Virus record (IMG/VR): IMGVR_UViG_2609459803_000005
From: a virus
Taxonomy: Duplodnaviria > Heunggongvirae > Uroviricota > Caudoviricetes
DNA length: 7,046 nucleotides
Direction: 5' to 3' (one strand)
The position numbers and the translations under genes were made by a program. The notes below the pieces were generated by a model, which was not told the origin of the DNA, searched no databases, and saw only the letters and a list, made by a program, of their open reading frames with translations. Shown here in pieces: positions 2,362 through 7,046 of this stretch; within the stretch, counting starts at the first letter, position 1; every line of letters starts with the position of its first letter.

Positions 2362-2748
2362 TTATCTCCCTTTCGCTATATAGCAAAGATTAAACCCACC
2401 GGCGCCTGACATACGGGCTGTAAAACCCGTTCTTGAAGTACCAGTTGAGTTAACTCCATAAGCAGGCATGGTTGCTGGAGAAAGCAGAGACTCCTGGATA
2501 TCTGCCATTGTCAGTGTAATTGATTCGACCCGCGCGGGGAAAGGTAGCGGGAAAACAACATTCGTCCCTGTCTGTCCAACGGGGAAACCGAAAATACCCC
2601 ATTGTGTAATTACCCCATCCGGCCCCTTACTCCATCCAGATTTAGGAATCGGCCAGTCTGCTGCTCCAGAGTGCCCCGTTGTAAAACTACTCATATCTGG
2701 TACTTGCCCGGTATCCGTTCCGACGTTCCTCGTTGCCGCTTCTCCCAA
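2362..2748 (-). CDS. Alternative tail-fibre C-terminal variable segment (Sv'-like), silent in this orientation, expressed only after inversion
   Basis: Minus-strand ORF 2362..2793. Residues 15-18 (GLGE) are encoded by the inverted copy of the crossover repeat, so inversion would fuse the upstream fibre remnant (...ENLGLGE) in frame to this segment. The ORF's first ~14 codons lie outside the invertible segment and are probably not coding. Confidence 0.65.
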   Translation of the reverse strand: MGEAATRNVGTDTGQVPDMSSFTTGHSGAADWPIPKSGWSKGPDGVITQWGIFGFPVGQTGTNVVFPLPFPARVESITLTMADIQESLLSPATMPAYGVNSTGTSRTGFTARMSGAGGFNLCYIAKGR

Positions 2749-2765
2749 ACCAACGTTTATGAAAA
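2740..2765. repeat. Right crossover site of the invertible segment (inverted relative to the left site; internal dyad AAACC-AA-CGTTT)
   Basis: CTTCTCCCAAACCAA at 2739-2753 is the exact reverse complement of 874-888. It lies 55-80 bp upstream of the invertase start, the usual arrangement in Gin/Cin/Pin systems. Confidence 0.6.
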
Positions 2766-2819
2766 TGCAGAAATAACGATCAAATGGCATCATTCCTGCT
2801 TTTGTCAGGGAGATCTACC

Positions 2820-3374
2820 ATGCTTATTGGCTATGTACGTGTGTCAACAAATGACCAGAACACAGATCTACAACGTAATGCGCTGAACTGTGCAGGATGC
2901 GAGCTTATTTTTGAAGACAAGATAAGCGGTACAAAGTCCGAAAGGCCGGGACTGAAAAAACTGCTCAGGACATTATCGGCAGGTGACACTCTGGTCGTCT
3001 GGAAGCTGGATCGGCTGGGGCGTAGTATGCGGCATCTTGTCGTGCTGGTGGAGGAGTTGCGCGAACGAGGCATCAACTTTCGTAGTCTGACGGATTCAAT
3101 TGATACCAGCACACCAATGGGACGCTTTTTCTTTCATGTGATGGGTGCCCTGGCTGAAATGGAGCGTGAACTGATTGTTGAACGAACAAAAGTTGGACTG
3201 GAAGCTGCTCGCGCACAGGGACGAATTGGTGGACGTCGCCCCAAACTTACACCAGAACAATGGGAGCAGGCCGGACGATTAATTGCAGCAGGAATTCCTC
3301 GCCAGAAGGTAGCGATCATCTATGATATTGGTGTATCGACTTTGTATAAGAGGTTTCCAGCCAGGATTATATAA
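2820..3374 (+). CDS. Serine recombinase, DNA invertase of the Gin/Pin/Cin/Hin family
   Basis: N-terminus MLIGYVRVSTNDQNTDLQRNAL carries the catalytic-serine motif (YVRVST), followed by DRLGRS and a C-terminal HTH, in a protein of about 185 aa. GGGAGA Shine-Dalgarno 6 nt upstream of the ATG at 2820. The ORF-track start at 2784 is an in-frame upstream extension without a ribosome-binding site. Closely resembles e14 Pin as I remember it. Confidence 0.92.
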   Translation: MLIGYVRVSTNDQNTDLQRNALNCAGCELIFEDKISGTKSERPGLKKLLRTLSAGDTLVVWKLDRLGRSMRHLVVLVEELRERGINFRSLTDSIDTSTPMGRFFFHVMGALAEMERELIVERTKVGLEAARAQGRIGGRRPKLTPEQWEQAGRLIAAGIPRQKVAIIYDIGVSTLYKRFPARII

Positions 3375-3411
3375 AACCGCAGACACGCCGTATGCAAGAC
3401 GTGCTGCGGTT
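3375..3411 (+). terminator. Stem-loop immediately after the invertase stop codon (possible terminator or RNA-stability element; no U-tract)
   Basis: AACCGCAGACACG ... CGTG-CTGCGGTT forms a stem of about 12-13 bp with one bulge, starting 1 nt after the TAA. No T-run follows, so intrinsic termination is doubtful. Confidence 0.25.
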
Positions 3412-3570
3412 GGCTGATGCACTTTCGAGAGTGTATGTATTGAATTATTTCCAGCCGTTACTGATTTTACGTATTTTTTGTATGAGAGGAGTTGCACCAC
3501 CTCTTAAGCATAATTTGTTAGAATCATGGCAGCACAATAGCCATATATCCAATATAAAATACTTAACCTT

Positions 3571-4470
3571 CTAATCATTATGGAGTATTTGATCGCCGTA
3601 TGGCCAGCCATTTTCCCCAGGAAGGGTCATACCTAACATTGGCATAATACTAAGTTGTCCAATGGTAAATCCTAGAGCACTTGTATTACTGATTCCGGCA
3701 TAGGTCATATCAAGGGGGTTAGACTCTGAGCTGGACATAAAAAGATTTCTTGTGCCAATTCTATTCGCCATTGAGAACTGAATATGCCCACCAATTGTAT
3801 TTACGGTGTCCTGAGATATCCAGTTGTTTAACGCGATAAATGGCGCCCGCCACCAGTTAAGCGTGCCATTCTCAAAACGCCCCCTCGTCATCTCAATATC
3901 TTCCCGAAACTGCTGCTTTCTGTCTCCCAAGACTACCGGGGTACCTGTTGTCAGGTCAAGGCAGTCCTCAATTACAAGATTAGTGGGGTTTGATGGGGTG
4001 TTGTAGATCTTAATGATTTTATGTACCTGTGTTCTGAAACAGAATCCGTAAATAATCATCTCCGTTGCTACAGAACGGGGAAAAAACTGGCCAATATCCA
4101 GTATAAATTTTTCCGCGATTCCCTTTGTTAAAACTGCAATTTCATAAAGACTCGGGTAACTATCATAAGTCAACTCCGGCTGCTGAACATCATAATAATT
4201 AACTTCATGTAATGAAGATAATGATACGGCAAGTAACTCCTTCACATTTATACCGATCATTGTTCCTCCTGCAAAGCCGAAACCAAACTCCATAATTTTT
4301 TCCGGAGATAGACGGTATATGTCATTGGAGCGAATAACTGATACCGGAATCGAGAATAGTTTAGGACAGTGATTTGTCATTACACTTTCATGCTGGGTGA
4401 TTCTTGAGTCGCTTACGGCCCAGATACTTTCCCCTTCTTCCCTGTTTAGCCAGCAGGCTATTGCTGTCAT
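3571..4470 (-). CDS. Hypothetical protein, 299 aa, unknown function (possible Ntn-hydrolase/HslV-like N-terminal region, unverified)
   Basis: Long minus-strand ORF (track 3571..4608). I place the start at the ATG at 4470 because it has a strong AAGGGGG Shine-Dalgarno 6 nt upstream. This gives MTAIACWLNREEGESIWAVSDSRIT... I recognise no family with certainty. Confidence 0.7.
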   Translation of the reverse strand: MTAIACWLNREEGESIWAVSDSRITQHESVMTNHCPKLFSIPVSVIRSNDIYRLSPEKIMEFGFGFAGGTMIGINVKELLAVSLSSLHEVNYYDVQQPELTYDSYPSLYEIAVLTKGIAEKFILDIGQFFPRSVATEMIIYGFCFRTQVHKIIKIYNTPSNPTNLVIEDCLDLTTGTPVVLGDRKQQFREDIEMTRGRFENGTLNWWRAPFIALNNWISQDTVNTIGGHIQFSMANRIGTRNLFMSSSESNPLDMTYAGISNTSALGFTIGQLSIMPMLGMTLPGENGWPYGDQILHND

Positions 4471-4872
4471 TGAAAACCCCCTTTTAAGTAAAAAAATCAG
4501 ATTCAGATAGTGCATACATAATTTAGTCAAGTCATCTCTTTTAAGACGCATTGAGAAATGGTTGCTCAAGGTGCGCCAGTGAACGCGCACGAAAATAACT
4601 TCTTGCATTTCCCATTACACTCTGACTTTAGGGCCGCGTTAGATTTTAACATGGTGGCCGTGCATCCATTTAAATTGGTAATCTGGAGAATGAGTAACGC
4701 TGAATAGATTAACAATCTATGCGACTAACGGCCCTTAAAAGCGCAGCTCATAACATCGAATTTTACCAGTTTAGTCATTTTTAAAAAGTGCCCGAAAAAT
4801 GTTGTCCACGATTTGTGCTCTACGTCCCATCTTGACCTACTCCCTGATAATTCACTCAGAAGGCGGTTAGCA

Positions 4873-4900
4873 ATGTCCGTTAAGTGCTCACAACGGACAT
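4873..4900. promoter_or_regulatory. Perfect 9-bp inverted repeat (ATGTCCGTT-N10-AACGGACAT) inside the cargo-cassette spacer; candidate operator or RNA hairpin
   Basis: Directly visible dyad symmetry. It lies between the two cargo genes, inside the questionable 78-aa ORF. Confidence 0.3.
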
Positions 4901-4951
4901 TCAGCCCACTAAATCCGACCGTGTCGCTCAATATGCGGACAGGTTGTAGTG

Positions 4952-5554
4952 CTAACTGCATTGTAGCTGTGAGATTTCACCATCGATGGCTTCTATAACC
5001 TGTTTATAGCGGAGCATGACCTCATCATGAATCATCATTAATCCGCGGCCGTACTCTGTGGCTAGGATTGTGTATCTTTTCAGGTGTGCAAGATGTTCTT
5101 TGTTGCCAGTAATGTCACTTGCAACCTGCGTGGAGTCCAGCCGTTCGATAAGCGCATTATTGCCGCGATAGGAATCAATTAGGCTTCTTGCGCTTGTATA
5201 AAAAGCCACAATTTTTGAGAGTGTTTCTCTATGAACTTCAGGTAGGGATGCCGAGTTGGCTTCATAGAACGTGAAGTAGTTTTGAGTAATGGGGAAAATG
5301 TTATCGAACGGTGAGTTCCGGTCGTATTTTTCGATTTCTTCTGCCATTCTGGCCTGATACAGTTTAATCAGTGAGTCTATTTCCTCTCTGACACCCAATA
5401 GCGTTGTTATACGCTTCTCTCTGGCCGCTGTTGCCTGCTGTTTTGCCTGCTGTTTCACCTGAGTTGTCACTCCTATCATCGTGAAACAGCCACCTAAAAG
5501 AGCTGCTAAAAATGCGGAGATGAGATCTGAATATTCGTGCCAGAAGGTTAGCAT
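4952..5554 (-). CDS. Hypothetical membrane-anchored protein, 200 aa (one N-terminal hydrophobic helix, then a charged, probably helical domain)
   Basis: Minus-strand ORF whose N-terminus has a hydrophobic stretch (LISAFLAALLGGCFTMIGV), followed by a K/Q/E/R-rich segment. No convincing Shine-Dalgarno before the first ATG (5554). An alternative internal start at 5479 has an AGGTGG upstream but would remove part of the hydrophobic helix, so the start is uncertain. Confidence 0.65.
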   Translation of the reverse strand: MLTFWHEYSDLISAFLAALLGGCFTMIGVTTQVKQQAKQQATAAREKRITTLLGVREEIDSLIKLYQARMAEEIEKYDRNSPFDNIFPITQNYFTFYEANSASLPEVHRETLSKIVAFYTSARSLIDSYRGNNALIERLDSTQVASDITGNKEHLAHLKRYTILATEYGRGLMMIHDEVMLRYKQVIEAIDGEISQLQCS

Positions 5555-5565
5555 GGCGAAAATTC

Positions 5566-5588
5566 CATTGGGTTAAATTATGTCTATT
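5566..5588. promoter_or_regulatory. Perfect palindrome GGTTAAAT-N7-ATTTAACC 12 bp upstream of the first cargo gene; candidate operator overlapping a -10-like hexamer (CATAAT on the minus strand, 5572-5577)
   Basis: Exact 8-bp inverted repeat read from the sequence. AT-rich, so more likely a protein-binding site than a stable hairpin. Confidence 0.3.
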
Positions 5589-5888
5589 TAACCACATAAT
5601 GATACGAAGATACCTTCCAAAATGTTGCTATGACCCCATCTGTTGTTGCCTGGCTGGTGACGTGTCTGGGTATTAGCACCGTGCTCTCTCATTATCTAAG
5701 TCTGGGCCAATCCTCGTTCATAACAGGCATTCACTTCAGTCATGGCAGAAAGGTATGCATGCTGGAGAAGTCATGAAAGAAAAGAAGACTTCTGCCTCGT
5801 TTGTCATCACTGTTATCTTCTCATTGATTATGCAGGTCATAGTGGGGACACACAAAGCTTTGTACTATCCGATAGTGGTTAAGGTGGA

Positions 5889-7046
5889 TCACTCCACCTT
5901 TTCATCAAGCCAATCCGCCCACCACTGCATCATTTCTCTGCGCTTATCGAGATACTGAGCATGGTTGTAAATACCGCGCACAGATCCGCCGTTGGCATGT
6001 GCCAGTTGCACTTCAATAGCGTCAGCAGGCCATTCGTGCTCGTTCATAATCGTGCTGAATTCATGCCTGAATCCGTGACCGCTTTCCAGACCCTCATAGC
6101 CGATTTGTTTGATCACAAGTAGCACCGCGTTCTCGCAAATTGGCTTCTTCTTATCGTTGCGCCCGGAAAAAACAAACTCTGATACTGGTTTAGTGATTGA
6201 GCTTAGTGTAGTGAGAAGTTCAACCACCTGGTCTGACATCGGGACCACATGAATTTTGCGTCCCTTCATTACACTGGCGTCGATGGTGATAATCCTGTTT
6301 TCAAAATCGACGTTCTTCCATAGCATGGAGCGAAGCTCTTTCGTTCTTAGGGCTGTGTAGCGCAAAACTTTAGTCGCAATGAGCGATACGATACTTCCTG
6401 AAAATGTTGCCAGTGCTTTATTGAATGCCGGGATCTGGTCTGCAGGAAGAAACGGGAAGTTTTTCTTGCGGTATCCCTTCATGGCGTCAGCAAGGTCAGG
6501 TGCCGGGTTATATTTAGCCCTACCAGTGACAATAGCGTAACGGAAAACCTCGCCGCATCTTCTGCGGGCTTTATTTGCTCGCTCCATTGCACCGCGATCT
6601 TCAAATCTGCGGATTACTTCCAGCAGTTGCATCGGCTCAATCTCCTGAATTTCAAGGCCGCCGATGATAGGTAAAATGTCGTCATCAAACATTTTTGCAA
6701 GTTCAGTCGCATACCCTACTGACCATACTTGCTTCTTGTGCTCGTACCATTCCTTGTAAATCGCACTAAATGAATTGTTGTTAGACGAAGCCTTTTTCGC
6801 CTTTACCGGATCGATGCCAACCGAGATGTCTTTCCTCGCAGTCCATGCCTTATCCCTTGCTTCCTGCAAAGTCATAAGCGGATATTTTCCGACGGTCAGG
6901 ATTTTCTCCTTACCGTCAATCTTGTAGCGAAGCTGCCATACCTTTTTCCCGGATACAGGAACATAAAGGTACAGGCCATTACCATCGAGAAGGCGGTATG
7001 GTTTTTCTTTCGGCTTTGCTGCTTCAATCTGCTTAACGGTGAGCAT
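5889..7046 (-). CDS. intS: Tyrosine recombinase, P4-type prophage integrase (IntS-like, CPS-53/KpLE1 family)
   Basis: Complete 385-aa ORF. Tyrosine-recombinase catalytic residues are visible near the C-terminus (HGFRHEFST with H-x-x-R, and VRGIYNHAQY with the catalytic Tyr). The start codon is the last triplet of the window, so the expected tRNA attachment site lies outside it. Symbol inferred from the dsdC-proximal context and my memory of K-12 IntS. Confidence 0.88.
   Translation of the reverse strand: MLTVKQIEAAKPKEKPYRLLDGNGLYLYVPVSGKKVWQLRYKIDGKEKILTVGKYPLMTLQEARDKAWTARKDISVGIDPVKAKKASSNNNSFSAIYKEWYEHKKQVWSVGYATELAKMFDDDILPIIGGLEIQEIEPMQLLEVIRRFEDRGAMERANKARRRCGEVFRYAIVTGRAKYNPAPDLADAMKGYRKKNFPFLPADQIPAFNKALATFSGSIVSLIATKVLRYTALRTKELRSMLWKNVDFENRIITIDASVMKGRKIHVVPMSDQVVELLTTLSSITKPVSEFVFSGRNDKKKPICENAVLLVIKQIGYEGLESGHGFRHEFSTIMNEHEWPADAIEVQLAHANGGSVRGIYNHAQYLDKRREMMQWWADWLDEKVE

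Follow-up and report, generated by a model that had tools for sequence, protein, structure and literature searches.

The DNA analyzed here (the window) is a stretch of 7,046 nucleotides (nt) held as IMG/VR virus record IMGVR_UViG_2609459803_000005; it is a prophage fragment from the argW end of an Escherichia coli prophage and is identical to IMGVR_UViG_2619619133_000005. We focused on a gene on its minus strand (positions 3571–4470, with the stop codon included and ending at 3571) that encodes a protein of 299 residues, proposed in the original prediction, which was made from the sequence alone, to be a proteasome/HslV-type N-terminal nucleophile (Ntn) hydrolase. On the combined strength of a predicted structure and a conserved active-site pattern, we assign the protein to a family with the fold of proteasome beta subunits and HslV.

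The start codon of the gene is the ATG at 4470–4468, from which the protein reads M-T-A-I-A-C-W as originally proposed, and a Shine-Dalgarno-like AAGGGGG, read from the sequence, lies 6 nt upstream (4477–4483, minus strand). The MT start is shared by homologues, being present in 145 of the 174 proteins retrieved. A longer open reading frame (ORF) of 345 residues begins at 4608 and appears as an annotation variant in some RefSeq records; we rejected it and prefer the 299-residue start because most homologues are 296–306 residues long and begin at the same MT, and because AAGGGGG precedes 4470. The gene is under purifying selection, with a ratio of nonsynonymous to synonymous substitution rates (dN/dS) of 0.14 against an 80%-identical Pantoea orthologue. 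Start calls across the RefSeq records of the family are inconsistent: an E. coli entry (WP_233337191.1) is annotated with 345 residues, and entries from Duganella (WP_211482711.1) and Burkholderia (WP_423368604.1) use downstream starts that leave proteins of 204–208 residues without the catalytic Thr. Wrong start calls of this kind conceal the catalytic N-terminus, and with it the Ntn signature, from annotation pipelines.

We predicted the structure of the protein with AlphaFold2, using alignments of two depths. With 21 sequences the mean predicted local distance difference test score (pLDDT) is 83.5 and the predicted template modelling score (pTM) 0.86; with 125 diverse sequences these values rise to 94.7 and 0.92. 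Both models have the same order of secondary-structure elements, S1–S5, H1, H2, S6–S9, H3, H4, S10–S11 and a C-terminal extension, and fold into a four-layer alpha-beta-beta-alpha sandwich with proteasome topology. When the better model is compared with the PDB using Foldseek, proteasome beta subunits and Anbu come out on top (E = 5e-8; target-normalised template modelling score 0.62–0.71). Fold-comparison figures give a similar ranking: 19.1–16 for 20S proteasome beta subunits (about 190 residues, 10–17% identity), 16.9 for Anbu, about 16–13 for proteasome alpha subunits, which rank below the beta subunits, 15.3 for HslV and 13.6 for BPH. A fold search of the BFVD viral library returns just distant phage proteasome/HslV-like proteins. 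The Ntn sandwich that the original prediction suggested looking for in a model is thus strongly apparent, and we are nearly certain that the protein has the proteasome-beta/HslV fold as modelled. The family elaborates this core with four elements: a long hairpin of S3 and S4 (residues 38–68, with strands at 38–46 and 57–68), a 23-residue loop between H1 and H2, a conserved WWRxP element between H3 and H4, and a C-terminal extension of about 55 residues with conserved glycines.

The residues expected of an active site are the best conserved in the family. A word-indexed search finds 27 relatives, every one labelled 'hypothetical protein', and an exhaustive profile search extends the family to 869 clusters at 50% identity with E ≤ 1e-3, including 524 with E ≤ 1e-10. 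Among 146 aligned full-length members (mean column identity 23%), position 2 is Thr in 141 and Ser in 3, directly following Met1 (141 members); there is no propeptide. Trp7 is present in 143 members, Asp21 in 145, Lys37 in 146, Gly63 in 136, Ala67 in 123, Gly68 in 145, Cys144 in 140 and Gly182 in 146; position 226 is Ile or Val in all 146, and Gly227 and Gly228 are each found in 144. Position 65 always holds a small residue (Ala, Gly, Cys or Ser), position 183 is always polar (Asp in 74, Ser in 31, Asn in 13, Thr in 10), and Trp17, Pro106, Glu137, Gly142, Arg208, Pro210 and Gln231 are also nearly invariant. Judged from this alignment, the Thr/Asp/Lys/Gly pattern of the 299-residue protein is not the product of chance, comprising the most conserved residues of a divergent family. 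A second clade of the family, 32% identical and 291 residues long, occurs in E. coli, Atlantibacter and Enterobacter hormaechei; it includes the proteins P0032 and P0295, the latter found on 107 contigs.

Placed on the predicted fold, these residues fall at positions topologically equivalent to those of the proteasome active site. Thr2, the predicted N-terminal nucleophile (codon ACA, 4465–4467, minus strand, as for all codons given here), directly precedes strand S1 in both models. Asp21 (4408–4410), within WAVSDS at residues 17–22, and Lys37 (4360–4362), at the end of SVMTNHCPK, are the apparent equivalents of proteasome Asp17 and Lys33 in both the PDB profile and the hhalign alignments described below. 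The segment GFGFAGG (residues 63–69; 4264–4284) ends the strand before H1, where it would correspond to the oxyanion-hole Gly region, proteasome Gly47 or the GFAGG of HslV. Gly182-Asp183 (3922–3927) lies at the turn from a strand into H3 and, from secondary structure, seems to take the place of proteasome Gly128-Ser129 and of HslV GSGG, while Ile226-Gly227-Gly228 (3787–3795), after helix H4, probably corresponds to the turn that Ser169-Gly170-Gly171 forms in proteasomes; in hhalign, IGG falls on SGG.

Most of what the original prediction said of individual residues agrees with these results. It had an Asp near position 20 in WAVSDS, a Lys near 37 in SVMTNHCPK and GFAGG at about 65–69, and its values for E. 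coli HslV (Thr1, Asp17, Lys33, GFAGG at 45–49) hold when checked against PDB 1E94/1NED. It was also right that there are large insertions relative to HslV and that GSGG is missing, as LGDR stands in its place. In contrast, the proposed echo of HslV ITGNGDVV in TTGTPVV (residues 200–206) appears to be out of register: predicted secondary structure puts the segment instead in the loop that leads into the strand and Gly182 standing in for IAIGSGG of HslV.

At the level of sequence comparison the relationship is much harder to see, though the faint signals agree with one another. Scans of the query against the Pfam, NCBIfam, PHROGs and PADLOC libraries gave no usable match, and a PDB profile search with close homologues alone gave no relevant one. 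With a profile of 125 members, the best PDB match is a proteasome beta subunit (E = 0.039), in an alignment that sets 'WAVaDSRiS...KIF' on 'ILAADTRLS...KIS' and so places Asp21 on Asp17 and Lys37 on Lys33. We also compared the family by hhalign with a small archaeal beta-subunit profile built from close relatives only (58–98% identity). The resulting register pairs Thr2 with Thr1, Asp21 with Glu17 of the Thermoplasma acidophilum beta subunit, Lys37 with Lys33, Ala67-Gly68 with Ala46-Gly47 and residues 226–228 (IGG) with 169–171 (SGG). The register of the oxyanion-hole Gly is ambiguous by 3 residues, as hhalign equates Gly68 with Gly47 whereas the GFAGG register of HslV equates Gly65 with Gly45. 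Against single sequences, hhalign found nothing significant for either the T. acidophilum beta subunit or E. coli HslV (probability 0.3% for the latter). Of the original proposal, then, the fold and the conserved residues stand, while the profile evidence for a proteasome/HslV-type hydrolase is only marginal; the family is a separate proteasome-like one, no closer to HslV than to 20S beta subunits.

We next describe where members of the family reside. The gene is carried by only 7 of 5426 complete E. coli genomes. It occurs there in two unrelated prophages, the argW/IntS prophage and a lambdoid prophage near torT, at whose end it lies, and on plasmid pSM107_MCR. Relatives are found on six plasmids. 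In P2-like prophages the gene occupies moron sites, which lie between gpV and gpS in Rahnella and beside ogr in Providencia, and in a Serratia lambdoid prophage it sits by a RelA/SpoT-type PDC-S33 gene and the cI repressor. A Photobacterium island holds it with an integrase, HNH and Mrr genes, a chromosomal islet holds it with Imm63, and on an Acinetobacter plasmid it lies between a reverse transcriptase, an insertion sequence of the IS3 type, an integrase and a zeta toxin.

Anti-phage defence systems are near the gene in about 9 of 23 loci, a qualitative count without a genome-wide background rate. Six loci (L010, L018, L019, L030, L041 and L043) have an operon of the cyclic oligonucleotide-based antiphage signalling system (CBASS) within about 3 kb, and the CBASS types all differ. 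These neighbourhoods include a Pantoea locus with Cap15 and a CD-NTase, a Herminiimonas locus with a patatin and a CD-NTase, and a metagenomic locus where a type II CBASS adjoins Wadjet (JetCD). In the Atlantibacter/E. coli clade (L030, gene at 8001–8876) the gene accompanies a CBASS with a two-transmembrane (2TM) effector and cyclase and a KAP NTPase, in an island flanked by serine recombinases. On a Vibrio conjugative plasmid (L041), the order is PDC-M27, the family gene, a cyclase with a 2TM effector that starts 60 bp downstream of the family gene, and a UG17 defence-associated reverse transcriptase (DRT) with SLATT. In Burkholderia sp. LMG 32019 (L018), a cyclase with a four-transmembrane effector is followed by a second CD-NTase with an AGS-C sensor domain (6394–7941), which has no effector of its own and ends 59 bp upstream of the family gene (8001–8867) on the same strand. 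At a further locus, the gene lies between Shango SngABC, which ends 22 bp upstream of it, and a Mokosh-like helicase. On a distant, GC-rich IMG/VR contig (L039), a six-frame scan revealed a HigA-like helix-turn-helix ORF (2552–3142) that ends 3 nt before the family gene (3145–3975); in that clade the two may form a regulator-effector or toxin-antitoxin-like pair.

No neighbour recurs as a conserved partner: all-against-all BLAST of the neighbours from 13 loci, and likewise of 23 candidate neighbours, found none. The gene travels alone, as cargo, in prophages, plasmids and defence islands.

In the window, the gene forms part of a 2.49-kb cargo block (3377–5866) made up of the gene itself, a 481-bp spacer and a gene for a 200-residue protein; the block is 99% identical in the lambdoid prophage and in plasmid pSM107_MCR. 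On one side of this slot lies a Pin-type serine invertase (2820–3374, plus strand; Pfam Resolvase and HTH_7; pinE of 184 residues in RefSeq) and on the other an IntS-type (P4-like) tyrosine integrase (5889–7046, minus strand; Pfam Phage_integrase, Phage_int_M and Arm-DNA-bind_3; intS by tRNA-Arg in RefSeq). In strain NADC1036, the right-hand part of the window is found at 100% identity inside a complete prophage by tRNA-Arg. The 200-residue protein (4952–5554, minus strand) has one N-terminal transmembrane helix and is otherwise helical; it gives only weak matches to the ZorB N-terminus in PADLOC (E = 0.002) and no other family match, and it is not a conserved partner of the family. We rejected a two-gene system comprising this neighbour and the 299-residue protein, as strain TL20 has the 200-residue gene beside intS without the target gene, and the neighbour has no homologue in other family loci. 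In TL20 the slot between pin and the 200-residue gene (L029, 3296–4633) is filled by an unrelated 445-residue hypothetical protein and an IS3 fragment; therefore the slot is a hotspot of cargo exchange, and the 200-residue gene, which need not accompany the target gene, may be prophage cargo in its own right.

The AT-rich spacer (4471–4951) travels with both genes. Its 78-residue ORF (4725–4961) is unconserved and has no library matches, a promoter and terminator scan of the spacer gave nothing above shuffled expectation, and Rfam and repeat scans of the cargo region gave nothing above background except the Pin inversion sites.

Several features of the window and of its relatives stand apart from the cargo gene. 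A 20-nt inverted repeat (869–888 and 2739–2758), its arms 95% complementary and 1850 nt apart, encloses, next to the Pin invertase, tail-fibre C-terminus and tail-fibre-assembly genes in two sets of opposed orientation; this is a classic Gin/Cin/Pin invertible host-range segment. From position 1 to about 385, all that the window encodes of the LysR regulator DsdC is its first ~128 residues; a truncated tail-fibre gene is joined to them out of frame, and matches to other E. coli prophages begin at 383–385. Because of this truncated dsdC fusion and the point at which the matches start, it seems likely from the sequence that the source strain lost part of dsdC and most of the prophage through a deletion. 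Among complete E. coli genomes, none has at least 80% of the window at a single location. Where the cargo block occurs in the lambdoid prophage and on the plasmid, a 410-residue hypothetical protein with no PADLOC match lies between the tail-fibre assembly gene and the target gene (L002, 8528–9760, minus strand; also L003), and it may be further cargo.

Taken as a whole, we give about an even chance to the reading that the protein is a stand-alone, cytoplasmic N-terminal-threonine hydrolase of mobile elements that probably acts as an effector in conflict or defence. Its parts differ in strength. That the protein is an active Thr1 hydrolase is probable, given the predicted fold and the conserved residues. 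A defence or conflict role stands slightly below evenly balanced; we think it the most likely role because the gene is lone cargo of prophages, plasmids and defence islands. More tentative, and rather unlikely in its full detail, is the view of the protein as a single-gene effector against phages or other mobile elements that has a proteasome-type Thr site and uses its own insertions and C-terminal extension as sensor or gate.

The mechanism we propose would begin with removal of Met1 by methionine aminopeptidase, exposing Thr2 as the nucleophile; removal of Met before Thr fits the established specificity of this enzyme and the precedent of HslV. Asp21 and Lys37 would form the proteasome-type Asp17/Lys33 pair, the GFAGG segment would provide the oxyanion-hole backbone, and Gly182-Asp183 and Ile226-Gly227-Gly228 would fill the places of the Gly128-Ser129 and Ser169-Gly170-Gly171 turns. 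The S3/S4 hairpin, the H1/H2 loop, the WWRxP element and the C-terminal extension would probably substitute for the control over substrates that HslV and the 20S proteasome receive from an AAA+ unfoldase. We infer that during infection the enzyme would then cleave a protein of the phage or the host, much as exclusion and abortive-infection proteases do.

A number of observations weigh against this reading. The query does not match Pfam PF00227 at E ≤ 1, and this family is touched by just 1 of 125 members, below significance (E = 0.08); by its predicted fold, the protein lies inside the proteasome superfamily but outside PF00227. The hhalign match to the archaeal beta profile, co-linear over 197 columns, is non-significant (E = 0.067). 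The proposed catalytic pentad of the proteasome includes a second pair, Ser129/Asp166 (PMC11947121). This pair is not clearly conserved in the family, as position 183 is Asp, Ser, Asn or Thr and the 146-member alignment has no invariant Asp after H4. That Thr, Asp and Lys cluster in space is deduced from their topological equivalence in a predicted model. With regard to defence, the link is guilt by association in about 23 loci without a genome-wide background rate, and four loci (L015, L020, L044 and L047) show nothing defence-like; in the last of these the gene lies beside the RNA-repair genes RtcR/RtcB/Ro60. PADLOC v2.0.0 contains no match at E ≤ 1, and tblastn against 50,697 cultured phage genomes found no match.

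The strongest competing explanation, although we judge it unlikely, makes the protein an orphan proteasome homologue whose role is physiological and unrelated to defence. It might, for instance, clear damaged or unfolded proteins without ATP when the cell is under stress, and mobile elements would merely spread it. The fold and the catalytic residues would be the same under this explanation, the loci lacking defence genes are what it would lead one to expect, and a stress-clearance role has already been suggested for Anbu and BPH. Many partner-less proteasome homologues are known that have no informative gene context (PMC8665760). In contrast, the patchy presence of the gene among E. coli genomes, its swappable prophage slots and its surroundings of CBASS, Shango, DRT and Wadjet are unlike those of a housekeeping gene. 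Somewhat less probable again is an active enzyme that is not a degradative protease. Such an enzyme could join peptides in a sequence-specific way, as a transpeptidase or a connectase-like ligase does, or it could be an amidase whose substrate is a non-protein amide, for instance a molecule of the cell wall, a lipid or a signalling compound. The fold-comparison figures are 10.2 for connectase and 10.7–10.8 for acid ceramidase/NAAA, and connectase has a specificity insertion at the site of the S3/S4 hairpin (PMC8665760).

The proximity of CBASS operons raises the question of whether the protein is an effector or accessory component of these systems rather than the product of an independent gene. 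The 59-bp and 60-bp spacings at L018 and L041, together with the operons within about 3 kb in six loci, speak for such a component, yet most family loci, including the window, have no cyclase; five of the six CBASS loci already have an effector (Cap15, patatin, 2TM or HNH-SAVED), the types differ, and library scans of the query detected no nucleotide-sensor domain. We therefore rejected a CBASS component as the general rule, and consider it improbable. Only at L018 does a functional tie to CBASS look possible, and a CBASS-linked role may hold for that one sub-clade.

Two other explanations fare worse. That the protein keeps its proteasome-like fold only as a scaffold without catalytic activity, as alpha subunits do, is very improbable: Thr, Asp21 and Lys37 are almost invariant despite the low mean column identity, no N-terminal extension covers the Thr, and beta subunits outrank alpha subunits in the fold comparison. 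An esterase of the GDSL/SGNH type, which the original prediction had offered as an alternative with SDSRIT as block I, draws on the local D-S-R motif alone and can be dismissed, since library scans gave it no support and the predicted fold excludes a GDSL/SGNH hydrolase with blocks I, II, III and V.

Proteasome-type threonine proteases are usually viewed as unfoldase-dependent housekeeping machines, and we know of no described bacterial immune system that uses the N-terminal-threonine class of protease. The family is new, or at least functionally undescribed, and its association with defence islands is a new element; searching the literature for accessions and for concepts turned up no paper that describes the 299-residue protein, cites its RefSeq accessions or ties a proteasome-like protein to phage defence. 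If the favoured reading is correct and the protein protects against phages, it would bring a new catalytic class to bacterial immunity and provide the first functional lead for partner-less proteasome homologues. Existing proteasome inhibitors and activity-based probes could serve directly as tools. Meanwhile, standard annotation leaves the whole 869-cluster family as 'hypothetical protein'.

Among known proteins, the 20S proteasome beta subunits (MEROPS T1, PF00227) share with the family the order of strands and helices, an N-terminal Thr, an Asp and a Lys in equivalent positions, and the GG turn after H4. The 299-residue protein, at 10–17% identity, has neither a propeptide nor an alpha-subunit partner, and is carried on mobile elements of Proteobacteria. 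The resemblance to HslV (ClpQ) lies in the MT N-terminus, the Thr1/Asp17/Lys33 pattern and the identical GFAGG pentapeptide; the mature N-terminus of HslV is made by Met removal alone, with no propeptide. In contrast to HslV, which has 175 residues, the protein has no GSGG/Ser124 motif, showing an L-G182-(D/S/N/T) turn instead, and no hslU or other AAA+ unfoldase gene adjoins it in the window or in about 23 related loci, in line with the absence of an adjacent partner that the original prediction had remarked on.

Anbu, BPH and the partner-less proteasome homologues described in 2021 come closest in character. Twenty-two new subfamilies were reported in that work, including the phage-borne PPH, and among them are RPC, DPH, GPH and PMI-1 to PMI-6; no informative gene context was found for them (Fuchs, Alva and Lupas 2021; PMC8665760). 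Like these proteins, the family has the equivalents of Thr1, Asp17 and Lys33 and probably one of Gly47, and lacks both a propeptide and an AAA+ partner. It differs from PPH and RPC in possessing helix H2. DPH, GPH and PMI-5 are found only in Proteobacteria, PMI-5 has insertions at S3/S4 and H3/H4, and GPH ('DGH' in the text of that paper) has a C-terminal extra region (PMC8665760). The family bears a likeness to each of the three. Compared by taxonomy and description of architecture only, the family could equal DPH, GPH or PMI-5; the family accessions listed do not coincide with the representatives WP_074989469.1, WP_152342571.1 and WP_179179973.1. Unlike the context reported for those subfamilies, a setting of defence islands and prophage hotspots is evident here.

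A final comparison is with Lit of prophage e14, a zinc metalloprotease of the exclusion/abortive-infection type. Lit has no fold relationship to the 299-residue protein. By analogy, however, the two genes look alike: each is a lone protease gene that a defective E. coli prophage carries as cargo close to its end, by a Pin-type invertase and an integrase, and the action proposed here, on a protein target during infection, would be of the same kind as that of Lit.

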